Counted from the stretch's first letter, positions 61-22,973 are shown. The stretch is 32,601 bases of DNA from Candidatus Uhrbacteria bacterium RIFCSPHIGHO2_02_FULL_57_19 (GCA_001791115.1 MGDZ01000043.1:2572-35172); one strand, 5' to 3'. The notes: generated by a model not told the origin, from the letters alone. A program made the numbers and translations.

Positions 61-80
61 CCTGCCTGCCGGCAGGCAGG
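61..80. repeat. 20-nt perfect palindrome cctgcctgcc/ggcaggcagg (copy 1 of 4 in window)
   Basis: Read directly. The same 20-mer, or one-change variants, recurs at 16708-16727, 19207-19227 and 26538-26557. Confidence 0.9.
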
Positions 81-86
81 AAGCGC

Positions 87-128
87 GTATACCGCAAGGT
101 ATCGCGAGTTCGAATCTCGCCCTCTCCG
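87..128 (+). pseudogene. tRNA-Ser 3' fragment (variable arm + T arm + acceptor 3' strand), no 5' half
   Basis: 103-128 is identical to 15-40 (26 nt: cgcgagttcgaatctcgccctctccg). A different variable-arm hairpin atacc-gcaa-ggtat (89-102) precedes it. No ggagagg acceptor 5' strand, D arm or anticodon arm occurs in 41-86; the palindrome 61-80 sits there instead. Confidence 0.45.
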
Positions 129-4446: not shown

Positions 4447-6203
4447 ATGCCCGGCGACGCTGACAAGGTGAAGGAACGGCTCGATCTCGTGGAGCTTATC
4501 GGCGAGTACATTCAGCTCCTGCGCGCCGGTTCCGCGAATTTCAAGACGCGGTGTCCGTTTCACAACGAAAAGACGCCGTCTTTTTACGTTTCAAAAGAAC
4601 GGCAGATGTGGCACTGCTTTGGCTGCGGCGAAGGCGGAGATCATTTCACCTTTGTTCAAAAAATGGAGGGCATGGATTTTCCCGAGGCCCTGAAACTTCT
4701 CGCGGGCAAGGCGGGAATCGAACTCGAGCGCTACGATGCCAAACTCGAATCCGAGAGGACGCGACTGTTGGGTCTTCTTGATCTGGCCGCGAAATTTTAT
4801 GAAAAGGTTCTGCTGGAACATCCGGGGGCGCAAATCGCTCGCGACTACGTAAAAACAAGAGAGATTCCCGAAACCACAGCGCGAGCTTTCCGACTGGGAT
4901 TCGCCCTTGATTCTTGGGATTCGCTTTCAACATTCCTTTCCGGACGCGGCCACACCCAAGATGAAATTCTGCGCGCTGGATTGGCCAGCCGACGCGAAGG
5001 GGCGCGGGGAATCTATGACCGGTTTCGCGGCCGCTTGATGTTTCCCATATCCAATGTCCACGGGCACATTGTCGGCTTTACCGGTCGGGTGCTGGATCCC
5101 AACGCAAAAGAAGCCAAATACGTCAACTCTCCGGAGACCGCGCTCTACAAGAAAGGAGCCATCCTTTATGCCCTGGATCGCGCCAGACAAGCGATCAAGC
5201 GCGCCGGATACGTTATTGTCGTCGAAGGCAACATGGACGCCGTCTCCTGCCACAAAATCGGCATGGAGCAAACCGTGGCTTCTTCCGGAACCGCGCTCAC
5301 TAGAGATCAACTTAATTTATTAAAGCGCTTCACGTCGAATATCCTTATCTCTTTTGACGCCGATATGGCCGGAGAGTCGGCGGCCAAACGGGGGATTGAT
5401 TTGGCGCTGTCCGAGGGATTTTCCGTGAAGATTATTCGTTTGCCATCAGGCGTCGGCAAAGATCCCGATGACTGTATCCGAACCAATCCCGAGGTCTGGA
5501 AGAAGGCGGTGGGGGGCGCGGTTTCCATCATGGAATATCTTTTCGAGATCATTCCTGCCGGAAAGGATTTGTCCACCGCGGAAGGAAAAAAAGATGTTGG
5601 AAACGCGCTTTTGCGGGAGATCATTAAACTTCCTGATCAAATCGAACAGACCCACTGGCTTGGGCGGCTGGCTTCAATGATTCAGGTGCCAGAGTCGGTC
5701 TTGCGTGAGCGACTGCCGAGCGGAAAGGAAAAGCCGGAAAGGCGGGAAGATCCTTCTCGGGCGCCGGCCGTCACGAGCAGAAGCCAGCGGTTGTTTGAAG
5801 GTTTTATTTCTCTTTTGCTTACTTTTCCCGAGCACGCGCCAGCGGCCATCGAGTTAGTTAGACCGGAAATGCTTCCCGATGAGGAAATCAGACGGTTGTA
5901 TACCCACCTGATTATACGCTATACTGGTGTCTCCGGTCGCGCTTATGCCGGCGATTTTGGGCTTGAAATCGAGTTGTCACCGCTGGAGCGGCGTCTGTTG
6001 CTGCAAGGGGAGCGGGATTTTGAAGGGATGGCCCAGGCGGCCGAAAGCGAGATCCGAAAATATGCCAGGGAAGTGCGCCGTGATTTCATTGTTCGGGAAC
6101 TGGCTCGCTTGCAGTCGGACATGGCCGCGGCCGAACGCTCCGGCGACAGGGGACGCGCTGATGATTTGTCCAGAAAATATCACGAATTGATGCAAACGCA
6201 GTG

Positions 6204-6204
<1 letters not shown>
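4447..6204 (+). CDS. dnaG: DNA primase
   Basis: Zinc-ribbon [30 protein letters not shown], a TOPRIM region ([12 protein letters not shown] ... [13 protein letters not shown]) and the conserved position upstream of rpoD. Confidence 0.95.
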
Positions 6205-7433
<1,229 letters not shown>

Positions 7434-7464
7434 GTGGTCCCCTTTTGGGGTCACAAAAAGTGTT

Positions 7465-7503
7465 CGCTGTCGAAAGTTATCCACGCGGAATAACTTGACA
7501 GCG
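7465..7503 (+). terminator. stem-loop downstream of rpoD (cgctgtc-ga-aagttat ... ataacttgacagcg)
   Basis: A 14-bp stem with a 2-nt bulge and a 9-nt loop. No T tract follows, so the function is uncertain. Confidence 0.3.
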
Positions 7504-7555
7504 CGGGCGGCGGCCGTTACGCTTCTTCTTAGATCATTCAAATTGTCATCTCTAT

Positions 7556-7925
7556 TCCGGGGTAGCTCAGTGGTAGAGCAGTTGGCTGTGCCATTTTAGA
7601 AGCCACAAGCGCAGCCCTCGATGGAAACATCGGGGTGTCCTCGAGGTGAATTGCTGGAAGCCTACATCCCGAGTTTCAGAGGGACACGGTAATCAGCAGC
7701 CAAGCCTGCTCAGGTTTTTTTCGCGAAAAACTTGCGCAGGAAGGTTCAGAGACTAGGGCTTAGCCCGTACCCCCACACCTTTGGCATAAAAGGTGTGGGG
7801 GGAAGCGCCTCGCACCCAAGGTCTCCGGCAACGGAGAATCCGGGTGAAGATATAGTCCATGCCCCATGGAAACATGGGGGTACCGTGTAACCAATTGGTC
7901 GTGGGTTCGAATCCCACCCCCGGAG
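7556..7925 (+). tRNA. tRNA-Asn(GUU) interrupted by a group I intron in the anticodon loop
   Basis: Joining exon 1 (7556-7589, 34 nt) to exon 2 (7888-7925, 38 nt) gives a 72-nt cloverleaf: TCCGGGG TA GCTC AGTGGTA GAGC A GTTGG CTGTTAA CCAAT TGGTC GTGGG TTCGAAT CCCAC CCCCGGA G. U1-A72 and G73 fit bacterial tRNA-Asn. CCA is not encoded. Confidence 0.8.
7590..7887 (+). ncRNA. group I intron (IC3-like core), no internal ORF
   Basis: Exon 1 ends in U and pairs ggctgU (7584-7589) with Gcagcc (7611-7616), giving the U.G pair of P1. The intron ends in G (7887). Core strings cagaGACUAggg (7751-7755) and aagatatAGUC (7853-7857) can form P7. ccaagc is present. GAAA-capped hairpins lie at 7619-7632 and 7862-7879. 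These strings match my memory of the Azoarcus and Tetrahymena cores. Confidence 0.8.
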
Positions 7926-7926
7926 C

Positions 7927-7957
7927 AAAAAGATCCACCTACGCGTGGATCTTTTTG
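7927..7957 (+). terminator. intrinsic terminator after tRNA-Asn
   Basis: aaaaagatccac-ctacgc-gtggatcttttt. Confidence 0.7.
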
Positions 7958-8094
7958 CGTAGGGGAGCCCCGCAACTGCTTGCGGGGCGTGTGGGATGAG
8001 AAGGCCGGAGCCATGTCCGCCGAGCGATGCTGGCGAGGCGGACGGCGAGGCGCGGCCTGCGACCGAGGAGGCGGAAGCCGACGAGAGTTGTAGG

Positions 8095-8113
8095 CGAATC
8101 CCACCCCCGGAGC
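8095..8113 (+). repeat. direct repeat of tRNA-Asn 3' end (19/19 identical to 7908-7926)
   Basis: cgaatcccacccccggagc, read directly. Confidence 0.9.
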
Positions 8114-8114
8114 T

Positions 8115-8149
8115 GAAAAGCGGACTGCCTTCACGGTGGTCCGCTTTTC
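8115..8149 (+). terminator. hairpin following the repeat copy
   Basis: gaaaagcggac - 13-nt loop - gtccgcttttc. Same layout as the terminator behind the real tRNA. Confidence 0.55.
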
Positions 8150-8425
8150 AGTTTCAGGCAGAGTGGGATTCGAACGGGAAGGGGAGGGAGTCGAAACGGA
8201 GCGAGAACACAATTGTTTGTGCTCGAGCCGTTGAGACCAGCGAGGCGATGTTTTGATAGAACCGCCGAGCTGTCGGGAGTCTCCCGTGGCAGTTCGAGGG
8301 GCCGGAGAGCATACAACCCGCGTTGTGTGCGTGCCCCGAGAACGGGTTGAGCGATGTGCGATAGCACCGCGAGACCCTTCAACACTAAAACCGAGGGGTT
8401 TTAGAAGCGAGCGGAGCGAGCGCGT

Positions 8426-8447
8426 GAGATTCCCACGCCCGGAGCCA
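8426..8447 (+). repeat. diverged tRNA-Asn-like 3' end that carries an encoded CCA
   Basis: gagattcccacgcccggagCCA against tRNA cgaatcccacccccggagCAA. Lies about 110 nt upstream of the 8560 start. Confidence 0.6.
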
Positions 8448-8559
8448 TGAGTGGACGTGTGTGGCGCCCATATGCGTCTGACCAAAGACCCATCAGGAAA
8501 GTGTTGGTTTTTACAGGGGGCTGGTTATCAGTGTCATTTTCAGCTAAAATGTCTTCACT

Positions 8560-11500
8560 ATGATCAAGCTGCAGGAAAATCCAAATAGCATCGATTTCAT
8601 CCGCGATGTTGCGGTGTATTTTATGGATTTCCTTGAAACGGATTTCCATAAAAGAAAACTTCCAAAGCGATCCATCAAGACCCGTAATAGTGACAACCTT
8701 CTTGTGGGCCTAAGCCTACAGAAGTACCCGTCATTTAAACGTATCGTTTTTGGTTTGATTAAGGATGGTTTTAAGAAAGACATGAAGATCACTATCGAGA
8801 AAGGGGTCCACAAGACCAGCCTGCCCAAGAGCCTCTTGGAACTGATCAAATTACAGGTTGGAAAAATCAACTCCGCGGAGTTGAGCGCCACGCTGGAAAA
8901 AATATCCAAAGAAGTTGAAAAACTCGGAACGCTCCATGCTGAGGAATACGATGTTGCGCTGACCAAGTCGATCGAGGTGGCAACAACACTCGTTCGAGGT
9001 GGTCTGGTACAACCGTTCGTAAATCAGATTGAGAAGCCACTACTAAACTTGGAACTAGGAAATGAAGAAAACTTGTTTTCGGTCGAAGAAGAATTATCGG
9101 CGGTCTTGATTCGACAGCTAGAGAACAAGATTTCTGAAGTGCTAAACCTTTTCCTAGCAAAGGAAAAGGTTAATATCCTCAAAGAACTCAAGTCTGTATT
9201 TCCGTTATCGGACATTAAAAGTAGTATCCTCACTTTTTTCGAAAATCTTAAAGTTGCAGACCTTTTCTCTGAGATTTTTGAAATGGACAGGAATAAAGAC
9301 ATTTTAGACAAACAAGAGTTTTATCTGTATTTCGGAGAGATTTCTTACGCTGGAAACAAATATCCAATTTTCTACCTGCCGTTTTCGGTGATGCGGCACG
9401 AAGAGGTGTTTGATATTGATTTTGATTCCCAAATCTACGTAAACAAAAAAGCCATAGAGTTCATCGTTCAGGAATATAATGTACAAAAAGGGACAAAGGG
9501 CAACCTCAAAACTGTTTCGGAAAGAATCATTTACCTCGGAAGTGGAAAAGATGGGATTCAGGATTATTTCCATTCAGTCCTCAGCGAATTAACCAACTTC
9601 TTTGATTTGAGCGGCGAGGTCGATTTTTTGAGCAAGGATCACAAAATCGCGAAAGGTCAGCTGGTGCGCATAACAAACGCGACTTTTGTAAACTTATTCG
9701 ATAAATCCGACGAGGCCCTGGTGAATGACTATGAGGAGATTTTACAGCAGTTAGCCCAAGGCGAAGGACCGCTTGCTGGGATTTTCAGGATATTCATCGA
9801 TGATTTCATCGAGAAAAATCCGATACCATTCAATCCTGAGGTGGAGGACGAGTGGGACAACACACAAACGTCGGATCGCCTCGTGCCATCAAGCCCCATT
9901 CCCTTGAACAGCGAGCAGCTTCAGATTTTGTCCGCGATGAGAAAGGATGAATGTAAGTACATCATCGTTCAAGGTCCGCCAGGGACCGGAAAAAGTCACA
10001 CGATCACAGCCATCGTCTTTGACGCGATCTTGAAGAATCGTTCAGTTTTAGTGCTCTCGGACAAGAAGGAGGCTCTCGATGTCGTTGAGGAAAAAATTAC
10101 TCAGACGATGAACAAAGTACGTTTCGATCAGAATTTCCAAAATCCAATCCTCCGTCTCGGTAAAACAGGTAGTACATACGGCTCCATCCTCGCCAAGAAC
10201 ACAATTGAGAATATCAAGGTTCACTTTAGGGCTACTAAAAAGGACTACGACGCGATCGAACAGAACATTGAGAAGCTGAAAAACTCGCTTAAAGAAGACT
10301 TGGAAGCGGAAATCCTCTCTTACGACGACGTTGATATCAATGAAATTCACGAGCTGTTTGATTTGGAGCCGGGTATCGCGCGATTTGAGGGGGCCGTCGA
10401 TATCGTCGAACTTTTAGGGAGACCCGATGGAGCCACTGAGTTGGCAAGTATTAGAGAGCTAACCTCATCAATTACCAGCACGCTTTCTGCGCCGCGAATC
10501 CAGGAGGTTTTTGGCATCTTCGGACAGGAAACCTATGCCCCAACCGATATCACAAAGCTGCGGAAAGTTTTTGGATCAATATCCAGCGTCCCCCTAATCA
10601 TGGAGAAGGTTCGTAGTGTCTACCCATCGGCAGATCATCGGCTGAGATCGTTTAGGAAATTATCGTCTAGTGATATTACGAAGCTGGATACCTTTCTCGG
10701 GGACTATCAAGCATTAAAATCGTGGTTGTTTGGATATTTCTTTAGCAAGAAAGGCATTGAAGAATTGAACTTGCGATTTAATAAATCCTTTCCTCTCAAC
10801 GGATTTAGCGAGCCACACGAACAGCTTCACGATATCCAGGTTGTTCGCGACATACTCGCATATATCACGCAGCTTGGTGCCGATTTCGACCTCGCCACGA
10901 GAAATAAAATTGATTTTGTCACCATCTGCCATCGTTCGCTTGTCGATAATGAATTTGCAGAGGGTGTTCAGCAAGCGCATTCTATGGGCGAGAACGTTGA
11001 ATTTTTGATCGAAGCACTGAACCCGATTCCTCTCACCGCCGGGAAGGCCGGTATTTCATTACAACGACCTAGCTCCTTTACAAAAAACAAGATATTAGAG
11101 ATTAACGATGATGATTTTGATAAACTACTTCGCTATATCGGACTGAAGCAAAAGCTGGACACTGCTTTCGAAAATATTCCAGAACTGAATTATGCCGCCC
11201 GAAAAAAGAATTTGGAGGATCTTATTACGGCTCAGGCAACATACCTGCTCGATGGACGCCTCATCGATTTCTACGAGCACAGCCGCAATGACGCAGAAGC
11301 ACTCCGAAATATTATTAGAACAAAACAGCGCTTCCCGAAAAACGAGTTTCGAAAATTAAAAGAAGCGTTTCCTTGTATACTCGCGGGTATCAGGGACTAT
11401 GCAGAGTACATTCCATTGGAGCCGGAGGTCTTTGATCTCGTTATTATTGACGAGGCTTCACAGGTCAGCGTCGCACAAGCCTTTCCGGCACTGCTCCGCG

Positions 11501-13119
11501 CCAAGAAGGTCCTCATTTTGGGTGACAAAAAACAGTTTAGCAACATTAAGGCCGCACAGGCACGTTCTGACACTAACCGTGAATACCTGAACAGCCTCAG
11601 CGAATCGTTTAGACGCAACATATCTACGGATACGACGAAAATGGTCCGGCTCGGTAAGTTCAATATCAAAACTTCGATCTTGGAATTCTTCGAGTTCATC
11701 AGCAATTACAATATCCCGCTGCTGAAGCACTTCCGTGGCTACAAAGAAATAATCTCTTATTCGAATAAGTTTTTCTATGAGGGAAGTCTTCAGGTGATGA
11801 AGATTCGTGGGAAATCCGTCGATGAAGTAATTAAGTTCACAATCACCGAACCAGACGACAACAATGTTCCATATCAAAACACGAACATCGGTGAAGTTAA
11901 TTTCATCATCTCGGAGTTACGGCACCTCCGTGACGCAGACAGGGCTGATTCGGTTGGTATTATTACGCCTCACACCAACCAGCAAAAATTGCTGATGGAA
12001 AGGATCGCCAAGCTTCCAGAGAGGGATTACTATTTTGAAAAGTTGAAACTTAAAATAATGACGTTCGACACCTGCCAAGGTGAAGAGCGCGACATCATCT
12101 ACTATTCGATGGTTGCGTCTGCGCAATCGGACCGATTGTGGGGTGTATTCATAAGGAATCTGAATGACGTTGATGTCGAGGAGGATGGGCAGATCAAAGC
12201 TCAGCGTCTCAACGTCGGTTTCAGCCGTGCAAGGGAGACAATGCACTTTGTCCTGAGCAAACCAATTGATGATTTCACGGGCTCGATTGGTGATGCGTTG
12301 CGGCATTATCATTTCATTCTTGGCGAAGCGAAAAAAGAACATGGCATCGAGGAGGTTGATGCCAAGTCAAAGATGGAACCCGTGGTGATGAATTGGTTCT
12401 ATCAAACGAGGTTTTGGAACGAGCATAAAGATTCAGATTCAATCGTGTTCCAACCGCAGTTTGAACTTGGAAAGTATTTACGGCAATTAGATCACACATA
12501 CAGCCACCCTGCGTACAAGGTCGATTTTTTGTTGATCTATCGCGATGAATCCCATCGAGAACACAAGATTATTATTGAATACGACGGCTTCCGTGAACAC
12601 TTTAAAGACATTGATGAGATTAACGAGTTCAATTATCAGCACTATTACTCCGACGGGGACGTGTATCGACAGAAAGTGCTTGAAAGTTACGGGTACAAAT
12701 TCCTTAGAATAAACAAGTTCAACGCAGGCGAGCATCCCGTCGCAACATTGGATAAAAGGCTAGGCGACCTCGTGAAGGTTTATCCTAGTGGGAATCCGCT
12801 GCTCATGAATATTCATGAGACCGTCTCGAGTCTCCAAAATGGGGAAATGAAGGAATGTCCGAAGTGCAAAGAAGTCAGGCACTTGGCTGAGTTTAAGGAT
12901 TCAGCTCTGCTCACGGGTTATGGTAGATTTTGCAGCTTCTGTAAGGGCATCAAGTTCCAAGCTGCGCGCGACGGCCAGAAGACGCCACCGATATTGAGTG
13001 ATCAAGCTTGTCCAAGCTGTGGAGCAAAGATGGTGCTTCGGAGTGGAAGGCGTGAAAAATTCTATGGTTGCTCTAAGTTTCCGTATTGCAAGGGAACAAG
13101 AGATCACAAGGGTGTCTGA
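8560..13119 (+). CDS. 1519-aa fusion: DUF4011-like N-terminus, SF1 (Upf1/DNA2-like, AAA_11/AAA_12) helicase, DUF559/REase_MTES_1575-like PD-(D/E)xK nuclease, two C-terminal zinc ribbons
   Basis: EFYLYFGEISYAGNKYPIFYLPFSV (about aa 253). Walker A GPPGTGKS (nt 9973-9996). Walker B VIIDEASQV (DEAS nt 11449-11460). ILGDKKQF, LLKHFRGYKEIISYSNKFFYEGSL, VGIITPHTNQ, TFDTCQGEERDIIYYS, RLNVGFSRAR. Nuclease VDFLLIY...IIIEYDGFREH...YRQKVLESYGYKFLRINKF (nt about 12480-12730). CPKC...CSFC and the topoisomerase-type finger CPSCGAKMVLRSGRREKFYGCSKFPYCKG. Confidence 0.85.
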   Translation: MIKLQENPNSIDFIRDVAVYFMDFLETDFHKRKLPKRSIKTRNSDNLLVGLSLQKYPSFKRIVFGLIKDGFKKDMKITIEKGVHKTSLPKSLLELIKLQVGKINSAELSATLEKISKEVEKLGTLHAEEYDVALTKSIEVATTLVRGGLVQPFVNQIEKPLLNLELGNEENLFSVEEELSAVLIRQLENKISEVLNLFLAKEKVNILKELKSVFPLSDIKSSILTFFENLKVADLFSEIFEMDRNKDILDKQEFYLYFGEISYAGNKYPIFYLPFSVMRHEEVFDIDFDSQIYVNKKAIEFIVQEYNVQKGTKGNLKTVSERIIYLGSGKDGIQDYFHSVLSELTNFFDLSGEVDFLSKDHKIAKGQLVRITNATFVNLFDKSDEALVNDYEEILQQLAQGEGPLAGIFRIFIDDFIEKNPIPFNPEVEDEWDNTQTSDRLVPSSPIPLNSEQLQILSAMRKDECKYIIVQGPPGTGKSHTITAIVFDAILKNRSVLVLSDKKEALDVVEEKITQTMNKVRFDQNFQNPILRLGKTGSTYGSILAKNTIENIKVHFRATKKDYDAIEQNIEKLKNSLKEDLEAEILSYDDVDINEIHELFDLEPGIARFEGAVDIVELLGRPDGATELASIRELTSSITSTLSAPRIQEVFGIFGQETYAPTDITKLRKVFGSISSVPLIMEKVRSVYPSADHRLRSFRKLSSSDITKLDTFLGDYQALKSWLFGYFFSKKGIEELNLRFNKSFPLNGFSEPHEQLHDIQVVRDILAYITQLGADFDLATRNKIDFVTICHRSLVDNEFAEGVQQAHSMGENVEFLIEALNPIPLTAGKAGISLQRPSSFTKNKILEINDDDFDKLLRYIGLKQKLDTAFENIPELNYAARKKNLEDLITAQATYLLDGRLIDFYEHSRNDAEALRNIIRTKQRFPKNEFRKLKEAFPCILAGIRDYAEYIPLEPEVFDLVIIDEASQVSVAQAFPALLRAKKVLILGDKKQFSNIKAAQARSDTNREYLNSLSESFRRNISTDTTKMVRLGKFNIKTSILEFFEFISNYNIPLLKHFRGYKEIISYSNKFFYEGSLQVMKIRGKSVDEVIKFTITEPDDNNVPYQNTNIGEVNFIISELRHLRDADRADSVGIITPHTNQQKLLMERIAKLPERDYYFEKLKLKIMTFDTCQGEERDIIYYSMVASAQSDRLWGVFIRNLNDVDVEEDGQIKAQRLNVGFSRARETMHFVLSKPIDDFTGSIGDALRHYHFILGEAKKEHGIEEVDAKSKMEPVVMNWFYQTRFWNEHKDSDSIVFQPQFELGKYLRQLDHTYSHPAYKVDFLLIYRDESHREHKIIIEYDGFREHFKDIDEINEFNYQHYYSDGDVYRQKVLESYGYKFLRINKFNAGEHPVATLDKRLGDLVKVYPSGNPLLMNIHETVSSLQNGEMKECPKCKEVRHLAEFKDSALLTGYGRFCSFCKGIKFQAARDGQKTPPILSDQACPSCGAKMVLRSGRREKFYGCSKFPYCKGTRDHKGV

Positions 13120-13232
13120 CCATTGTCAGATTTGTCTCGATCTCGCCTTAAAGAACTTGAGACCCGCATTCGTCGGACTGTCCCGAAGGTGCTCCCGAAA
13201 AGCCCCCTAAGATATACACGAACTGGGGAACC

Positions 13233-13254
13233 AATCCCACCCCCGGAGCAAAAG
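13233..13254 (+). repeat. direct repeat of tRNA-Asn 3' end plus its trailing A-run
   Basis: aatcccacccccggagcaaaag. The first 21 nt are identical to 7910-7930. An imperfect hairpin and a T run follow (13250-13285). Confidence 0.9.
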
Positions 13255-13383
13255 GGGCGACTGCCTGTAGGCGGTCACCTCTTTTACTTTTGTGGTAGTC
13301 GGACTCTAGGGGCGCGAGAGGAACCAAGCAGCGCAGGTTCCGGTGCGTAGCGCCTAGGATCGAGTCGGAGCGAGAGAAGAGCC

Positions 13384-13396
13384 AACCCCAGAGCCA
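13384..13396 (+). repeat. weak tRNA-3'-end-like remnant with CCA (aaccccagagCCA)
   Basis: Part of a roughly 50-nt stretch (13366-13416) that aligns with 8412-8464: cggagcgag ... cc.gagccatga.tgg..gtgtgtg.gcc. Confidence 0.35.
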
Positions 13397-13488
13397 TGAA
13401 TGGGTGTGTGTGTGCCAACTCAGAAGTAAAGGGAGCGTACGGCGCGTGTTGACCGCCTTGTGGATTAAGAGTATTCTTTTCGCCGTAT

Positions 13489-14400
13489 ATGAAGCGTCTT
13501 TCGCCGCGATCAATTGATTTCCTGGCTGTGACCATTACGGGAGGAGCATGGCCGCCGGACGAAGCCACCCCATGGCCATACCGTCCGGGCTGGAAGATCG
13601 AAAAGTTTTTCCGCCAATGCAACTACGATTATTCGCTTAACGGTTCTTCGCGCGTACCGTGGACGGAGAGCGTGCTTCAGGACATCAATACGAAGGAGGG
13701 TGTCGATGGGGTGAAAAAGATCGTCGAGTATCTTCTCGACCCGCGGGACTGGGTGGGGAACGAGGAAAAACATGCCCTCCTTATTTCCGAGCTCAACGAT
13801 TATTTATTTCACGACGGGTACGAAGTTGTATACGAGGCTTCGCTTCGAAGGTACGTGATGAGAGAATTGGGTGGTGAGCCCGTGATGCTTCGCGAGGCGC
13901 ACAAGAGCTACTTTTTCAAACCAGCCGCGCTCGAAAAGGAGTTCGAACGTATCCTCGGTTCAATCGAGACGGACCCGCCCGACGCCGTCACATCGGCTTG
14001 CTCCCTCGTTGAGAGCGTTTGCAAGCATATTCTTGACAGGCTTGGTTTGCCACACCCGTCGCAGAAAACGATTTCACATCTCGTAAAATCCGTGATGGAA
14101 CACCTGCGCATCTTGCCGGAGGGTCAGACCGACGAAGGATTCCGTCGACTTGTCGGCGGACTTCGGACCGTTGTTCACGAGATCGGCAATATGCGAAATG
14201 AGTTTGGCGATGCCCATGGACACACCGACGGCCCACAACATCTCACTCGAACGCATGCCAAGCTTGCCGTCGGGTCGGCGGCGACGATTGCGACCTTTCT
14301 CGTAGAGACGTTCGAGACGCAAATGCCGAGAGAGGAGGCAAGGGGGCCGGGGCCGGATACCATCGTCCAAGGTATCAGGGCCAAGGATATTACTTTTTGA
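13489..14400 (+). CDS. AbiJ-like abortive-infection protein with C-terminal Abi_C/HEPN domain
   Basis: C-terminal IGNMRNEFGDAHGH (R at nt 14194, H at 14215) fits the RN..G.aHG motif of Abi_C and the Rx4-6H signature of HEPN. The N-terminal YRPGWKIEKFFRQCNYDY...SSRVPWTESVLQDIN...IVEYLLDPRDW resembles AbiJ N-terminal domains. Confidence 0.7.
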   Translation: MKRLSPRSIDFLAVTITGGAWPPDEATPWPYRPGWKIEKFFRQCNYDYSLNGSSRVPWTESVLQDINTKEGVDGVKKIVEYLLDPRDWVGNEEKHALLISELNDYLFHDGYEVVYEASLRRYVMRELGGEPVMLREAHKSYFFKPAALEKEFERILGSIETDPPDAVTSACSLVESVCKHILDRLGLPHPSQKTISHLVKSVMEHLRILPEGQTDEGFRRLVGGLRTVVHEIGNMRNEFGDAHGHTDGPQHLTRTHAKLAVGSAATIATFLVETFETQMPREEARGPGPDTIVQGIRAKDITF

Positions 14401-14446
14401 TCGCCTGTGTCTCAAACCCCCTTGAGCCTCGGATAAACGCAACTAG

Positions 14447-14455
14447 CCCCGGAGC
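14447..14455 (+). repeat. short remnant of the tRNA-Asn 3' end (ccccggagc) directly before a terminator
   Basis: Only 9 nt are identical. The context mirrors the real tRNA end: the hairpin that follows has a tacgcg centre like the one at 7927-7957. Confidence 0.4.
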
Positions 14456-14458
14456 CAA

Positions 14459-14491
14459 GAATAGCCGACGTACGCGTCGGCTATTCTTTTT
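14459..14491 (+). terminator. intrinsic terminator
   Basis: gaatagccgacg-tacg-cgtcggctattc followed by ttttt. Confidence 0.8.
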
Positions 14492-14588
14492 GTCTCGGAG
14501 GGATTTGAACGGACGCCCGAGGAGTGCGGTGATGCGCACTCCGAAGCACTTCGGCCGACCGGAAGGGAGCGAATTTCACTCACGCCTC

Positions 14589-14617
14589 TTGAGGCCACTG
14601 GAATTCCAGCGTATACT
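14589..14617 (+). promoter_or_regulatory. candidate sigma-70 promoter of the ABC-F gene
   Basis: TTGAGG (14589-14594), 17-nt spacer, TATACT (14612-14617). The ATG at 14627 is only 9 nt past the -10 box, which implies a leaderless or near-leaderless mRNA. Confidence 0.4.
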
Positions 14618-14626
14618 CGCCGGGCT

Positions 14627-16096
14627 ATGGGGAACGACAATGTCGTCCTGCGTTTCAGCGACGTCACCTTCCTCTACGGCGAACACCGGCCCATCCTTGA
14701 TGAGGCCTCCTTTTCGGTGCGAAACGGATCGAAGATCGCGCTGATGGGACAGAACGGCGCGGGCAAGACGACGCTGTTCAAGCTCATCACGGGCGAGCTG
14801 CAACCCCGCCATCGGCGGGGCATCTTTACGACGCCGAAGGAGACGACGATTGGGGTGGCGAAGCAGGTGGTCGCCCCGGAGCACAAGGATCTCACGGTCC
14901 GTGAGTTTTTTGCGACCACGTTTGCGCAGGTTCCGTACAACCTGGACAAGCGCATCGCCACGGTGCAGGACGCGGTGAACCTCAAGACGGACCTGAAAAA
15001 GAAGGTACAGGCGTACTCGGGCGGCGAGCTCGCGCGCCTCCTCCTCGCGTACGCGCTCATCCAGGATCCGGACCTCCTGCTCCTCGATGAACCCACAAAC
15101 AACCTGGACCAGGAGGGGATCGACCACCTCACGGGGTTTTTGATGATGTACGAGAAGACGGTGCTCGTCATCTCGCACGACGCCGAGTTCCTGAACGCCT
15201 TTACGGACGGCGTGCTCTACCTCGACGTCCACACGCAAAAGGTCGAACAGTACCAAGGCAACTATTGGAACGTGGTGGAGGAGATCGCCGAGCGAACTTC
15301 GCGCGAACGCATGCAGAACGCGCGCGCCGAAATGGAGATCCGCAAGAAGAAGGAGCAGGCCGAGGTCTTCGCGCACAAGGGAGGCAAACTGCGGTCGGTG
15401 GCGAAGCGCATGCGCGAGGCTGCCGAAGAGGCAGAAGAAAGCATCGTGGAGGTGCGCCGCGAGGACAGGACCATCCGGGAGTTCACTATCCCCATGCAGG
15501 AATTTCCGTATGACTTCAACGGCAAGATCCTCGACATCACGCAGGTTGGGATCATGAAGGATGGGAAGCACGTCACGAAGGAACTGAACCTCACGCTCCG
15601 CAAGGGGACGCATGCGCTGCTCGCCGGCCCGAACGGAATCGGCAAGTCAACGCTTCTTCAGCGCATCACAAACGACACGGCAGAGGGCATCACGATCGGC
15701 AAAGACGTGCGCGTCGGCTACTACAGCCAGGACTTCGCCACCCTCGACTACGGTCAAACGGCGTACGCCTGTCTCGAGGAAGTCATGGAGAAGAAGGACG
15801 AGCATATTCTGCGCGCGACTGCCGCGGGTTTCCTCTTGGACGGCAAGGCGCTTGGCAACCGGATTTCGCATCTTTCGGAAGGGCAAAAGGGACTGCTCGT
15901 CTTCGCCCACCTCGTGCTTATGAAGCCCGGACTCCTGCTCCTCGACGAGCCGACCAATCACATCAACTTCCGCCACCTGTCGACCATCGCCAAGGCCATC
16001 GACGAATTCGGGGGCGCGGTGCTGATCGTCAGCCACATCCCGGACTTCGTCGCCCAGATCCGGATCGACGCGACGATCGACCTCGGAAAACTTTGA
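14627..16096 (+). CDS. ABC-F family ATPase (two ABC domains, no TM domain)
   Basis: GQNGAGKTT / YSGGELARLLLAYAL / LLLLDEPTNNLD, then GPNGIGKST / LSEGQKGLLVFAHL / LLLLDEPTNHIN, with a charged K/E/R linker between the two domains. Confidence 0.9.
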   Translation: MGNDNVVLRFSDVTFLYGEHRPILDEASFSVRNGSKIALMGQNGAGKTTLFKLITGELQPRHRRGIFTTPKETTIGVAKQVVAPEHKDLTVREFFATTFAQVPYNLDKRIATVQDAVNLKTDLKKKVQAYSGGELARLLLAYALIQDPDLLLLDEPTNNLDQEGIDHLTGFLMMYEKTVLVISHDAEFLNAFTDGVLYLDVHTQKVEQYQGNYWNVVEEIAERTSRERMQNARAEMEIRKKKEQAEVFAHKGGKLRSVAKRMREAAEEAEESIVEVRREDRTIREFTIPMQEFPYDFNGKILDITQVGIMKDGKHVTKELNLTLRKGTHALLAGPNGIGKSTLLQRITNDTAEGITIGKDVRVGYYSQDFATLDYGQTAYACLEEVMEKKDEHILRATAAGFLLDGKALGNRISHLSEGQKGLLVFAHLVLMKPGLLLLDEPTNHINFRHLSTIAKAIDEFGGAVLIVSHIPDFVAQIRIDATIDLGKL

Positions 16097-16707: not shown

Positions 16708-16727
16708 CCTGCCTGCCGGCAGGCAGG
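16708..16727. repeat. 20-nt palindrome cctgcctgccggcaggcagg (copy 2)
   Basis: Identical to 61-80. Intergenic, upstream of the glycosyltransferase gene. Confidence 0.9.
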
Positions 16728-19771: not shown

Positions 19772-21361
19772 TCACCTTGTCACGCTGATGCTCTCGCCCA
19801 GTTCGGCGCCGCAGGCGATGACCTCAGCTCGTCCGCTAGCTCGGCTTCTTATGGCGTAATACGTCTTAGTATCGTCACCAAACCTTTCGTCAACGGGCAT
19901 CTGCGATAAGTAGTCGTCAACCAAACTGCTTCGCAGATCCAGACAAACGTCGTTGGTGGCGGCGCCCCCGCTATATCCGACAGTAACGCTTTTTAATTCA
20001 GGAGAAAGCGAAACGTTATCTGTTTCAAAAAACGCTTTGTACTGGAAATATTGCGTACTGGAAACATTGATCAAAGCCATAGTCGGAGGATTGACCGAGG
20101 TGCTTGCGAGTTCGGAGTAATAAGTGGAGGTTGCGCCGTTTGGTCCGATAAAAGACTCTCCGACGCAGGCCGAATCGTCACAAGATCGAACCTGAAGATT
20201 TAGCCGCAAGGCGCCGCGCTTGTAAAGATCGGATATTTCCGTGGCCGAAAGGGCGCGGTTGTAAACCGCGACTTCGTCGATTCTGCCGTCCCAAAGTTCC
20301 GCGAATCCGGGGTTACGGCCAATAGTTAAAACAGTGTCGCTGGTGTCGTATCCCGGCCCGGAACCCAGACTGGTTGAAACGCCGTTTTTGTAGAAATAAA
20401 TGTTACTAGCGTCCCAAACGCCACAAACATGCTGCCAAGTGCTGGCATCAACCGAAACACCAGTTGACCAATAAGCGCTGCCGGTCGCCAACCGCCAGGT
20501 AGATACCAGACGATCGATGGACCAGTCATAACCGCCATTATCGGTTGAGATCAGATCATGATCGCCGGCGCTGGTGCTGGCCGGGTAAGCCCAGGCGCAA
20601 ATTGTCAGCAGTTGGCCGGATGATTGATCGACGTTCAATCCTGTAGTGATGGCGTCGTTGACGCCATCAAATGAAGTGGCGGTATTTAATTTCCCGCTGA
20701 CTCCCGCAGTCGGACAGGTAGCGCCGGCGCACGAGCCGTTATTGCCATTGCCGGAAGTGTCGGCAAAACTGGTTGAACTGACAACATCATTTAAATGCAT
20801 CAGTAACTGGTTGCCGGTCAGATTGGCATTGCCCGTCGGATAGCCGGATTCAGATTGGCTGCTGTTAGGCAGTTCTTTATACAACGGCCGTTGCGGCAGC
20901 CAAGAGATAACGTTCCAGTCAATGATTGAACCGGCATCCTTGACGTTAGATGAAAAATCGCCGGAACCTAAAGCTTGACCGGCAGCGGTCAGCTCCAGCC
21001 AGTTGTTGCCGCTGTCCCACTGAGTATTGTTCATCGTGCCGGCCGCGAACTCCGCTGATTCATCGTCTATGAATGTCAATCCGCCGCAGGCGATAGTGCA
21101 GCCGCCTGTAGCCGTTCCCAGCATTCGGAGCGTGGTGTCAATGCCTGATGGCAGAACGCTGTTATCCGTCGCGTATTCCAAAACCGCTTCGAGAATGGAT
21201 CTTACTTCCGACCAGCGCGAGGAGTTTCTGGCCTCAGCCAGCCGCCTTACCGGATCAACGGCGACAAAAATCACCGCCGCCAAGACGGAAATGATAGTCA
21301 TGACTATCAACAGTTCAATCAATGTAAACCCAGCGTCATTATTGAATTTTTTTGGTTTCAT
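19772..21361 (-). CDS. type IV pilin-like protein (prepilin N-terminal methylation motif) with LamG/concanavalin-type domain
   Basis: GFTLIELLIVMTIISVLAAV near the N-terminus. LamG_3-like WQHVCGVWDASNIYFYKNG ... GRIDEVAVYNRALSATEISDLY. Confidence 0.8.
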   Translation of the reverse strand: MKPKKFNNDAGFTLIELLIVMTIISVLAAVIFVAVDPVRRLAEARNSSRWSEVRSILEAVLEYATDNSVLPSGIDTTLRMLGTATGGCTIACGGLTFIDDESAEFAAGTMNNTQWDSGNNWLELTAAGQALGSGDFSSNVKDAGSIIDWNVISWLPQRPLYKELPNSSQSESGYPTGNANLTGNQLLMHLNDVVSSTSFADTSGNGNNGSCAGATCPTAGVSGKLNTATSFDGVNDAITTGLNVDQSSGQLLTICAWAYPASTSAGDHDLISTDNGGYDWSIDRLVSTWRLATGSAYWSTGVSVDASTWQHVCGVWDASNIYFYKNGVSTSLGSGPGYDTSDTVLTIGRNPGFAELWDGRIDEVAVYNRALSATEISDLYKRGALRLNLQVRSCDDSACVGESFIGPNGATSTYYSELASTSVNPPTMALINVSSTQYFQYKAFFETDNVSLSPELKSVTVGYSGGAATNDVCLDLRSSLVDDYLSQMPVDERFGDDTKTYYAIRSRASGRAEVIACGAELGESISVTR

Positions 21362-21368
21362 GCGGCGT

Positions 21369-22973
21369 TTATCTCGTCACGCTGATGATCTCGCCCAGTT
21401 CGGCGCCGCAGGCGGTAACCTGCACCCGTCCGCTAATCCGGCTTCTTATGGCGTAGTATGTTTTGGTATCGTCGCCCCATCTTTCGTCAACGGGCATCTG
21501 TGACAGATACCCATCAACCAAACTGTTTCGCAGATCCAGACAGGCGTCGTTGGTAGTGCTGGTGGCTCCGCCGCCGTATCCGATGGTCGCGCTTAAAAGT
21601 TCCGGTGAAAATGACGAGTTGTCCGTTTCGAAAAACGTCTTGTACTGGAAATATCTCGTGCTGGAAACATTGGTAAGAGCAAAGGAGGGGAGACTTGGTG
21701 ATGAACTGTTCAACTCGGAATAGAAAGTGGAGGTCGTTCCGTCCGGACCGATCAAAGTGTCTCCGGCGCAGAGCGAGTCGTCACAGGCCCGGACATGGAA
21801 CTTGAGACGCACGGCGCCGCGCTTGTAGTGGTCGGAGACCTCGGTGGGCGACAGAACGCGATTAAAGACGGCGTATTCGTCCAGGGTTCCGCCCAGGGCT
21901 TGGGTGGAATCGAAACTTCCTCCAACCGAATCCTGGTCCTGCGCGATTACCAGTGAACCGGCTCCTCCGATCGAGGTGCCGGTGGCCAAGGTTCCGGAAA
22001 AAGACGAAACGCCGTCCTTGTAAACCCTGACGTTTCCGTCTGAACTCTGCCAGGTAACGGCCACATGGTGCCAGACGTTATCGTTAACCGCGACACCGCT
22101 GGCCGTGGACACCGCGCCTCTGTAAATGGTCAGGTTAGAGCTGTTGAAAACCAGCCAGGTGTTATCGGACGAAGTCGTGGCATAGGATGAAATTCCGTCG
22201 CTGCTGTCACTGGTTTTGATCCAAAATTCCGTGGTGATGGAGGTAGTAGGGAAACTGACCGCGGGATTTTTGATGACATAATCAGTGATCGTCCCACCCG
22301 GGAAGCTCCTGCCTCGGTTGAGTTTGGCGGTGACAATTGAGCTGCCGGTTGCCGTGCCGCCATTGCCGGTTCCTGATGAGTCAGCCGCCGCTGTTCCTGC
22401 TGATTCATCCAGATGCCAAAGCACTCTATTGCCGGTCATGTTGGCGTTGCCAGTCGCGTAATCCGTCTCCGACAGCGCGCTTCCGGGCAGATTCTTGTAG
22501 AGCGGCCTCTGTGGTACCCAAGAGATAACATCCCAAGAAACAACGCTGCCTGCGTCTTTTATTGTCGAAGTAAAATCTCCGGACCCCGCGATTTGACCTG
22601 CCGCGGTTAGTTCCAACCAGTTATTGGCACTGTCCCACTGCGTGGCGTTCATTGTGCCGGCGGTAAACTCTGACGACTCGTCGTCTACGAGGGTTACTCC
22701 TCCGCAGGCGACGGTGCAGCCGCTTCCGGCGGTTCCCAGCATCCGAAGCGTGGTATCAATGCCCGTTGGTAAAAAGTCGTTGTCCGTGGCGTATTCCAAA
22801 ACCGCCTCGAGAATGGATCTTGCCTCGGCCCAGCGCGAGGCATTTCTGGCTTCAGCCCGCCGTCGTATCGGATCCACGGCAACCAAAATCACTGCTGCCA
22901 AGATGGAAATAACTCCGATAATGATCAGCAGTTCGATCAGGGTGAACCCGTTCCTTGATTTTTTGATCAGCAT
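21369..22973 (-). CDS. type IV pilin-like protein with LamG domain, tandem paralog
   Basis: GFTLIELLIIIGVISILAAV. WHHVAVTWQSSDGNVRVYKDG ... GTLDEYAVFNRVLSPTEVSDHY. The N- and C-terminal thirds are near-identical to the 19772-21361 product. Confidence 0.8.
   Translation of the reverse strand: MLIKKSRNGFTLIELLIIIGVISILAAVILVAVDPIRRRAEARNASRWAEARSILEAVLEYATDNDFLPTGIDTTLRMLGTAGSGCTVACGGVTLVDDESSEFTAGTMNATQWDSANNWLELTAAGQIAGSGDFTSTIKDAGSVVSWDVISWVPQRPLYKNLPGSALSETDYATGNANMTGNRVLWHLDESAGTAAADSSGTGNGGTATGSSIVTAKLNRGRSFPGGTITDYVIKNPAVSFPTTSITTEFWIKTSDSSDGISSYATTSSDNTWLVFNSSNLTIYRGAVSTASGVAVNDNVWHHVAVTWQSSDGNVRVYKDGVSSFSGTLATGTSIGGAGSLVIAQDQDSVGGSFDSTQALGGTLDEYAVFNRVLSPTEVSDHYKRGAVRLKFHVRACDDSLCAGDTLIGPDGTTSTFYSELNSSSPSLPSFALTNVSSTRYFQYKTFFETDNSSFSPELLSATIGYGGGATSTTNDACLDLRNSLVDGYLSQMPVDERWGDDTKTYYAIRSRISGRVQVTACGAELGEIISVTR

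Follow-up and report, generated by a model that had tools for sequence, protein, structure and literature searches.

Modules that lack an integrase but retain both attachment sites, attL and attR, and stand in tandem form an established category, the cis-mobilizable elements (CIMEs) formed by accretion (PMC5704250). In Dehalococcoides, tandem islands, some of them without an integration module, are bounded by a 20-bp repeat of the ssrA 3′ end (PMC3146451). The principle is that the incoming element supplies a new tRNA end, while the old end and its flank move outward (PMC4383910); the partial tRNAs of Prochlorococcus islands come from older integrations (bioRxiv 10.1101/2020.12.28.424599). Here we describe a locus of this type in a stretch of 32,601 nucleotides (nt), hereafter the window, from Candidatus Uhrbacteria bacterium RIFCSPHIGHO2_02_FULL_57_19 (GCA_001791115.1, MGDZ01000043.1:2572-35172), whose population, sampled in Rifle aquifer groundwater, belongs to the uncultivated Patescibacteria, or candidate phyla radiation (CPR). 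Downstream of its tRNA-Asn gene lie direct copies of the tRNA 3′ end, separated by gene-less spacers and by two single-gene segments. The region is probably a tandem array produced by repeated site-specific integration of circular DNA into the terminal segment of the tRNA gene, and it is best read as a fossil or cis-mobilizable (CIME-like) array in an unusual lineage. A preliminary description, made from the sequence of the window, had considered that this was not a standard island architecture; the CIME accretion arrays (PMC5704250) and the Dehalococcoides ssrA arrays (PMC3146451) had already established it, and the array belongs to a known class.

The tRNA-Asn(GUU) gene is split in its anticodon loop by a group I intron of 298 nt, which is why ARAGORN called no tRNA in the window. 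The assignment of the intron is based on a match to the catalytic core (Rfam RF00028 at 7580-7879, 70.4 bits against a gathering score of 50, E = 4e-16), on its position in the anticodon loop and on the splicing of the exons to a valid, canonical tRNA-Asn; the identity of the tRNA had been recognized before, and the intron overlooked. Group I introns in CPR tRNAs have already been mentioned in the literature (PMC8172020). Among relatives (designated here by locus numbers) the intron is sporadic: it occurs in L023 and, with an HNH endonuclease open reading frame (ORF) inside, in L121, and is missing from L016, L017, L021, L032, L117 and L132. In L116, whose RpoD is 75% identical, the 5′ half of tRNA-Asn is duplicated around a small GIY-YIG endonuclease ORF (11980-12437), and the contig stops inside the second copy.

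The segment that recurs, termed O (CGAATCCCACCCCCGGAGC, 19 nt), spans the tRNA from the T-loop to one base beyond the discriminator. It matches without mismatch in the gene itself (7908-7926) and at 8095-8113, with one mismatch at 13231-13249 and with three at 8427-8445, always on the + strand and nowhere else in the 32.6-kb window, 0.01 matches being expected by chance. Exact recurrence had been claimed for two copies; it holds at 8095-8113, and the other copy (D) is instead identical in 18 of 19 positions, at 13231-13249. Weaker copies were scored against a composite of the host tRNA end, CCA and the trailer of relative L121, with z-scores relative to shuffles. The stretch 8415-8520 reached z = 29, 13370-13440 z = 11.4 (26/31 identical), 14435-14500 z = 4.9 (13/14) and 7990-8050 z = 4.4 (11/11, equalled in 1/1000 shuffles), against 1.4 and −2.2 for control stretches, so that the short remnants at 8003-8013, 13382-13396 and 14446-14457 are significant too. 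Counting the tRNA, there are seven copies, all on one strand and within 6.6 kb downstream of the gene. Coincidence or a dispersed repeat is ruled out as the origin of O by the 0.01 matches expected and by the confinement of the copies to this single stretch and strand, and the initial view of the repeats as tRNA-derived scars of attachment-site (att) type is upheld.

The copies are of two kinds, which alternate strictly. In the first (tRNA, B and D; Table 1) no CCA is present and the sequence runs straight into a terminator. In the second (8003-8013, C and E) a CCA is followed by ATG(A/T).., extending in C and E to ATGARTGG..GTGTGTG, the trailer that tRNA-Asn has in related CPR genomes; copy F has CCA and then a terminator. 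C together with 67 nt of trailer matches the tRNA-Asn end and trailer of L121 at 78% over 87 nt (blastn, E = 7e-12) and those of L117 at 74% (E = 1e-8). Therefore, C is a displaced or imported former tRNA-Asn 3′ end. The preliminary description had located the copies and missed both the alternation and this homology. A hairpin in the trailer after C was considered as a terminator and is unsupported (−7 kcal/mol, z +1.2).

The four long copies (tRNA, B, C and D) begin within 1-3 nt of one another, inside the T-loop. This common start matches the 'T-stem region' attP class, to which the crossover of 1836 of the 3919 mapped tRNA-gene (tDNA) islands has been assigned (PMC4383910). To the left of B and C lies a T-stem-like half-site (GTAGG and GTGAG, respectively), D having GGGG at that place; such flanks would be expected if the core were an imperfect inverted repeat with its centre in the T-loop.

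Hairpins with a T-run directly follow the copies ending at 7926, 8113, 13249 and 14457, as previously noticed, with z values from −5.9 to −7.6 and free energies (dG) of −22.1, −30.5, −22.6 and −22.5 kcal/mol, respectively. Hairpins 2 (after B) and 3 (after D) and that of L132 are homologous and show compensatory changes, B plus hairpin being 82% identical to D plus hairpin over 34 nt. Behind the terminator, the T-loop and 3′ T-stem recur in inverted orientation, as the exact 13-mer GTGGGATTCGAAC at 8163-8175, with 2 mismatches at 14498-14510 and in weaker form at 7991 and 13292. The gene-less modules have a build in common: terminator, inverted T-loop/T-stem copy, variable core, a GGAGCGAG-type motif and the next tRNA-end copy. 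Since the inverted copy follows the terminator, the tRNA end, the terminator and the inverted copy fold as one long hairpin, of −36 to −66 kcal/mol, at 7898-8010 and 8088-8185 of the window (−55 kcal/mol for the latter) and in L132 and L023. The long hairpin might serve as a recombination site or a reinforced terminator, or might have no role. The spacers gave nothing above noise against Rfam, the overlapping ORFs of module M1 had no Pfam match, and pairwise local alignment of all inter-copy segments of the window yielded nothing significant beyond short motifs. A duplication of flanks, suggested earlier from two motifs common to the right sides of B and F, is not borne out, and what these motifs mark is the recurrent mini-module; the first, gggattYgaacgg, is real and corresponds to the inverted T-loop/T-stem copy, and the second, ggagcga, is weak, with 3 matches in the window against 0.9 expected.

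Table 1. Coordinates of the tRNA-Asn array and its chromosomal flanks in the window (dG in kcal/mol).
Feature	Position	Strand	Remarks
tRNA-Asn(GUU) exon 1	7556..7589	+	Spliced with 7888-7926 gives a 73-nt cloverleaf with anticodon GTT (ARAGORN)
Group I intron	7590..7887	+	Rfam RF00028; in the anticodon loop, between anticodon positions 2 and 3
tRNA-Asn exon 2	7888..7926	+	Last 19 nt (7908-7926) are segment O; no CCA encoded
Terminator hairpin 1 and T-run	7925..7958	+	dG −22.1, z −7.6
Gene-less module M1	7927..8094	+	Terminator 1, second hairpin, weak inverted T-arm motif GTGGGATGAGAAG (7991-8003), remnant CCGGAGCCATG
Decayed tRNA-end remnant with CCA	8003..8013	+	CCGGAGCCATG; z 4.4, inside module M1
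O copy B	8095..8113	+	19/19, no CCA
Terminator hairpin 2	8112..8152	+	dG −30.5, z −6.0
Gene-less module M2	8114..8426	+	Terminator 2, inverted 13-mer, variable core, hairpin AAAACCGAGGGGTTTT, right motif GAGCGGAGCGAGCGCGTGAG
O copy C and tRNA-Asn trailer	8427..8512	+	16/19, CCA at 8445-8447; trailer ATGAGTGGACGTGTGTGG...
Cargo 1, 1519-aa Upf1-like superfamily 1 (SF1) helicase	8560..13119	+	C-terminal topoisomerase-type Zn-ribbon; Pfam AAA_11, AAA_12, Zn_ribbon_Top1
O copy D	13231..13249	+	18/19, no CCA
Terminator hairpin 3	13250..13285	+	dG −22.6, z −5.9
Gene-less module M3	13250..13381	+	Terminator 3, weak inverted T-arm motif (13292-13304), right motif GGAGCGAGAGAAGAG (13367-13381)
O copy E, decayed, and trailer start	13382..13418	+	CCA at 13394-13396; 26/31, z 11.4; trailer start TGAATGGGTGTGTGTGTG
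Cargo 2, 303-aa AbiJ-like protein	13489..14400	+	Abi_C domain; Pfam Abi_C, PADLOC AbiJ
O copy F, acceptor part alone left	14446..14457	+	GCCCCGGAGCCA, with CCA; 13/14, z 4.9
Terminator hairpin 4	14457..14488	+	dG −22.5, z −7.3; also from terminator scan; loop TACGCG as in hairpin 1
Partial module M4 and ABC-F promoter region	14489..14626	+	Inverted T-arm motif GAGGGATTTGAAC (14498-14510), GGGAGCGAA (~14566); no right-hand O copy
rpoD, primary sigma factor	6201..7433	+	Left chromosomal flank (dnaG-rpoD operon); Pfam Sigma70 r1.1-r4
ABC-F type ATPase	14627..16096	+	Right chromosomal flank; Pfam ABC_tran x2, ABC_tran_Xtn

The division into gene-less, helicase and AbiJ-like modules made in the preliminary description stands. 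Each of the two cargo genes has its own predicted promoter, and they are independent, since they are not found together elsewhere. The helicase (cargo 1) matches Upf1 and Smubp-2 in the Protein Data Bank, and a nuclease region of Vsr/PD-(D/E)XK type is weakly supported by weak MTES_1575 and DUF559 matches. With PADLOC PDC-S37, MkoA/C and Hhe the helicase core alone aligns (residues ~930-1230); an assignment to Hhe, ProA or Mokosh MkoA-C was rejected, the scores being 141 bits against a cut-off of 1500 for NCBIfam ProA and 100 against 2000 for Hhe. Cargo 2 shows the Abi_C domain (Pfam, E = 3e-18, 66 bits against a cut-off of 24) and the overall profile of AbiJ (PADLOC, 1.4e-21 over residues 98-276), and is thus a predicted AbiJ-type protein. 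Both are probably phage-defence genes. Their accessory nature, asserted from the beginning, is borne out by the G+C content of the helicase stretch, 37-46% against about 55% in the flanks, and by relatives that lack both genes at the site. Only 19 homologues of cargo 2 were found, the closest with 45% identity; in two distant AbiJ-like ones (P0257 and P0258) Abi_C is fused to a tyrosine-recombinase domain (PF00589).

The helicase family has more than 1400 homologues, the best 120 of which, at 58-65% identity, are distributed over CPR, Bacteroidota, archaea and others, and several members of the family are found in mobile settings linked to tRNA genes. In L117 and L125 an intact, intron-less tRNA-Asn with a C-type trailer directly precedes a 64%-identical homologue, behind which come a convergent large serine recombinase and phage-like genes. 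In L118-120 the helicase is found, with DnaJ-domain and SocA/Panacea proteins, in an island at tRNA-Trp whose other end is a copy of the last 15-17 nt of that tRNA and in which no integrase is detectable. With it there are two tRNA-bounded islands that lack an integrase and have cargo of this family; in L118 it extends over 8.2 kb (6408-14654) and houses a 65%-identical homologue. In L124 the homologue lies near tRNA-Ala, with an HTH_17 protein and a tyrosine integrase. Finally, an identical unit of ~7.9 kb, formed by a large serine recombinase, an XRE regulator, a helicase 63% identical to that of the window and a DUF2779 protein, sits in L126-L131 in several different flanks, including beside tRNA-Arg(CCT), and in either orientation; it looks, from its sequence, like an active serine-recombinase element, and some of the samples that contain it also contain the organism of the window.

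No gene for an integrase, excisionase or transposase was recognized, by Pfam in the large ORFs of the window that were scanned or by annotation in the contig look-ups, in agreement with what was first reported. The same ORFs gave no match to PF00589 or PF00239, Pfam on two spurious ORFs that span spacers revealed no recombinase, and tblastn with serine and tyrosine recombinases of related elements detected no recombinase pseudogene in the window. As for possible donors, 11 matches to the 17-mer of the repeat in IMG/VR were examined as phage attP candidates and rejected as coding-sequence coincidences without tRNA context, and IMG/VR scans with the tRNA end plus trailer, the helicase protein and the right-end motif of the modules gave nothing. 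A metagenome scan for the tRNA end plus trailer returned two loci, L121 and L122, the latter belonging to the assembly that also contains L117. Copies of the window modules were found neither in free form nor in other contexts.

Taking into account the tRNA origin of the repeats, their common strand and start, and the absence of a recombinase, we propose the following history for the integration array. Each incoming element would have brought a copy of O and, behind it, a terminator or trailer of its own, and therefore the tRNA would have stayed intact. The earlier tRNA end, with whatever followed it, would have been pushed downstream; therefore every O copy with its right flank would be the fossil of a former tRNA 3′ end, and the newest insertion would be the one next to the tRNA. 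The T-loop site suits a tyrosine recombinase, and an enzyme of this type, in the T-stem class, may have been the agent; however, in three settings the helicase is accompanied by a serine recombinase, the type that acts at ssrA in Dehalococcoides (PMC3146451). The insertions could have been three composite units that arrived whole, each with terminator, gene-less module, old tRNA end with trailer and cargo, or up to six separate simple insertions, as the solo modules of L132 and L023 would allow; the strict alternation of the kinds of copy speaks for the former. What would remain now are the attP-sized mini-modules M1, M2 and M3, a partial M4 and two single-gene cargo segments, the recombinase having been either deleted, as in decayed islands, or never present on the modules, which would be cis- or trans-mobilizable like CIMEs.

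Among the described systems, the CIMEs of the ICESt1 family and the streptococcal tRNA-Lys arrays (PMC5704250) share with the locus direct repeats of the target 3′ end, here candidate attL/attR sites (B as an exact and D as an 18/19 sequence copy, C, E and F being decayed), the absence of integration and transfer genes, the tandem placement beside an intact target and, in the history proposed here, the regeneration of the target by the newest insertion. They differ in that here the host belongs to the CPR, no partner of the integrative and conjugative or integrative and mobilizable kind (ICE/IME), from which CIMEs derive by deletion and whose accretion beside them makes them mobilizable, and no conjugation genes are visible in the window, although homologues of the helicase do occur in recombinase-bearing elements, and the modules have 0.13-5.1 kb, zero or one gene, and a terminator with an inverted T-loop copy. 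The ssrA islands of Dehalococcoides are similarly stacked downstream of a small-RNA gene between direct repeats of ~20 bp of its 3′ end, in a host genome that is likewise streamlined, of organisms uncultivated or hard to grow, and their members without integration module have been interpreted as cis-mobilizable or fixed (PMC3146451). In contrast, their target is the transfer-messenger RNA gene, most of them have an integration module with a serine recombinase, and they carry dehalogenase rather than defence genes in islands within the typical size range of phage genomes (PMC3146451).

The tDNA islands of Islander (PMC4383910) and the tycheposons of Prochlorococcus resemble the array in the intact tDNA with displaced 3′ fragments in direct orientation, in the attachment at the T-stem region, and in the successive integrations that shift older elements outward and leave degenerate remnants and extra partial tRNAs. 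The locus has the intact tRNA at one end, direct fragments at 8095, 8427, 13231, 13382 and 14446, and foreign content, as judged by the deviant G+C content and by L132, L121 and L115, which are without both cargo genes at the locus; however, Islander requires an integrase gene per island, of which there is none here, and tycheposons have integrase and replication modules. The pdif modules of Acinetobacter and the integrative mobile elements exploiting Xer (IMEX), such as the CTX and TLC phages (PMC7399989, PMC4246890, PMC3442271), are likewise small units, often with one gene and with no recombinase of their own; recombination sites delimit them, and their tandem arrays regenerate the target. 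The attP of CTX is a hairpin formed by two inverted partial sites with a spacer between them, and the long hairpin described here bears a likeness to it. However, the target here is the T-arm and 3′ end of a tRNA instead of dif, and the modules lie between direct repeats whereas pdif modules lie between inverted sites. Integron cassettes are also single-gene units stacked at one site, but here there is no intI, attI or attC; direct repeats of the tRNA end delimit the units, for which promoters and terminators of their own are predicted.

Linkage of rpoD and tRNA-Asn is also present in L016, L021, L032, L121 and L132. In L132 (RpoD 81%), one of the two closest relatives found, the tRNA-Asn ends in the same 3′ sequence; behind it come a terminator, GTGGTTCGAAC, some 180 nt, GGAGCGAAGCGACGAGG and then the tRNA end again in exact copy, and neither a gene nor an integrase lies between the tRNA and its copy. 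This is a near-empty allele of the same kind of site. Of the empty sites and variable cargo that the preliminary description had proposed to look for in other strains, none was seen among some 25 conspecific contigs. In L121, rpoD and the intron-bearing tRNA-Asn are followed by the same trailer and then by a different, unrelated gene, and L115 has no tRNA-Asn after rpoD. The contigs of L016, L017 and L021 break off at the tRNA-Asn or at most 150 nt past it, which suggests assembly breaks at variable content behind this gene.

Exact-protein look-ups placed the window also on GCA_001791225.1 (MGEG01000047) and GCA_001779685.1 (MFKW01000024), and those of AbiJ, ABC-F and RpoD retrieved further metagenome contigs, ~25 in number, that match it at 99.5-100% identity. 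The array is now fixed in the sampled population. Because this population is near-clonal, the absence of array variation says little on the age of the array; for the same reason SNP (single-nucleotide polymorphism) density allows no inference on a selective sweep of the island, and apparent gene-content differences downstream of ABC-F between conspecific contigs were gene-calling differences on the same DNA.

Several observations weigh against repeated integration at O. The left flanks of D and F, the copies after the cargo genes, share no motif with the right ends of the gene-less modules, and therefore the cargo segments may have come by another route; F retains only 10-12 nt of O; and random serial insertion would not lead one to expect that the two kinds of copy alternate so strictly. 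No matching attP was found in IMG/VR, and this organism yielded neither a recombinase nor a circular junction nor an empty-site allele, the ~25 conspecific contigs from many samples having one fixed layout. The similarity of the gene-less modules across genomes is marginal by score (nhmmer, E = 0.02-0.14) and rests partly on agreement in position and orientation. Moreover, RpoD identity falls from 100% to 81% or less, so that there is no close sister species in the databases (an RpoD scan of genome contigs found relatives at 70% identity or less only, mostly Firmicutes), and therefore the empty-site evidence stems from fairly distant relatives with partly different synteny.

Modules of the same build are seen outside the window. 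In L023 the module build occurs twice, after tRNA-Ser as a 119-nt module whose bounding copy has 1 mismatch, and after the intron-bearing tRNA-Asn, the two matching one another at E = 5e-4. A profile of the L023 modules (nhmmer) detects 8384-8434 of the window at E = 0.021, with a co-linear weak match at 8165-8218. The inverted motif tracks the T-loop of each local tRNA, TTCGAAT pairing with ATTCGAA and TTCGAGC with ACTCGAA, and the inverted 13-mer (2 mismatches at most) lies within 200 nt downstream of 3 of the 21 ARAGORN-detected tRNAs of CPR loci, and upstream of none. The sequences thus make it likely, though not proven, that the gene-less spacers are one mini-module family, present also behind tRNA-Ser and tRNA-Asn in two other CPR genomes. 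Copies of CCTGCCTGCCGGCAGGCAGG, a perfect palindrome of 20 nt, are scattered in the genome of the window (61-80 and ~16708-16727; L096 3695-3714) and in L132, where the palindrome lies inside the mini-module (12205-12224), and a variant is found in one of the L023 modules; the palindrome behaves like an insertion of the repetitive extragenic palindromic (REP) type and explains part of the variation in module length.

The shared build of the modules and their recurrence at different tRNA genes of other CPR genomes, with the inverted motif matching the local tRNA, also speak for a live system of non-autonomous cassettes, which we consider rather unlikely. In it, a recombinase whose gene lies elsewhere in the genome or on a co-resident element would act in trans to move the mini-modules (O, terminator and inverted T-loop copy ... 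right motif and O) and the single-gene units. By analogy with CIMEs, the pdif modules of Acinetobacter and Xer-exploiting elements, the hairpin of O, terminator and inverted O might be the recognized site, and integrase-less modules that use host or helper recombinases are indeed known (PMC5704250, PMC7399989, PMC4246890). Such mobility would agree with B being exact and D 18/19, and with the identical helicase-bearing serine-recombinase element in several flanks, in samples including some with the organism of the window, from which it follows that active recombinases exist in the community. On the other hand, decay has affected the copies with CCA (8003-8013, C, E and F), the analysis yielded no candidate recombinase, no free or alternative-context module copies were found, and the module-number polymorphism that the preliminary description had envisaged did not appear, neither number nor content of modules varying over the ~25 contigs and many samples; nothing was found that points to mobility at present.

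The mini-module with its inverted T-loop copy may be the sole feature of the locus that is new. Taken further, the spacers could represent an undescribed family of non-autonomous elements of the Patescibacteria, a composite proposal whose steps together we hold to be unlikely. Its members would insert into the segment from the T-loop to the 3′ end of different tRNA genes, each supplying a new end for the tRNA together with a strong terminator and the target T-loop in inverted copy; the hairpin of O, terminator and inverted O resembles the folded attP of Xer-exploiting phages. A host-encoded or helper recombinase would move these elements, and accretion would give rise to stacks of single-gene defence modules without an integrase at the site.

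A site-specific recombinase might also be dispensed with altogether, if blocks formed by the tRNA-Asn 3′ end, its trailer and a downstream gene were imported from related genomes by transformation or transduction, through homologous or homology-facilitated illegitimate recombination at the tRNA end, with subsequent unequal crossing-over between the copies. The co-linearity of C and its trailer, up to the start of the helicase, with L117, in which a genuine tRNA-Asn precedes the helicase homologue, speaks in favour of such import, as do the reduction of F to the acceptor part, which places the junction elsewhere, and the lack of a common motif in the left flanks of D and F. But an anchor of 17-19 nt is very short for RecA-dependent exchange; homologous exchange predicts junctions anywhere in the 73-nt tRNA, yet four copies start within 1-3 nt; and gene-less modules with the same ends occur at tRNA-Ser, where the sequence of O is different. 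We regard this route as improbable.

That the copies are by-products of intron or homing-endonuclease activity, with double-strand-break repair duplicating parts of the tRNA, is hardly credible: the tRNA-Asn has a group I intron, and endonuclease ORFs exist in relatives (HNH in the L121 intron, GIY-YIG between the tRNA 5′ halves of L116) and at the tRNA-Ser of the left edge of the window (GIY-YIG), but between the intron, in the anticodon loop, and the more downstream start of the copies there are about 20 nt of exon, the anticodon-stem and variable-loop sequence expected from co-conversion is in no copy, the endonuclease-linked duplications concern 5′ halves and not 3′ ends, and the intron-less tRNA-Asn of L132 shows the same 3′-end copy.

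The array is placed in a local order of dnaG (4447-6204), rpoD (6201-7433), tRNA-Asn, array region and ABC-F ATPase (14627-16096). A second tRNA of the same genome shows partial duplications: the left edge of the window falls inside tRNA-Ser(GGA), a copy of 25-30 nt of whose 3′ part, full T-arm included, is located 88 nt downstream (window 99-128), and upstream of the window a GIY-YIG ORF lies between two copies of the tRNA-Ser 5′ end (CCAGAGCGGAGAGGT; L096 3560-3690, region L096 3480-3930). Further to the right, at 19772-22973, are two tandem paralogues, both coding for N_methyl (pilin-type) plus Laminin_G_3 proteins and sharing a ~80% identical 5′ stretch, in which most strain-level SNPs of the population fall (hot spot 18.9-20 kb).

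Patescibacteria have tiny genomes, and to our knowledge little is known on how they acquire and shuffle accessory genes. The locus indicates that in these bacteria too a tRNA gene is used as a landing pad, the survivors being stripped to single defence-type genes and att scars. Its practical value is modest: the succession of tRNA end, terminator, inverted T-loop copy and second tRNA-end copy provides a signature for accessory DNA in CPR genomes, and since intron-bearing tRNAs escape tRNA finders, the islands attached to such tRNAs escape notice too. The mini-module with its inverted T-loop copy deserves a systematic survey; if it is true that mini-modules are mobile in trans, they would constitute a new class of miniature integrative element.

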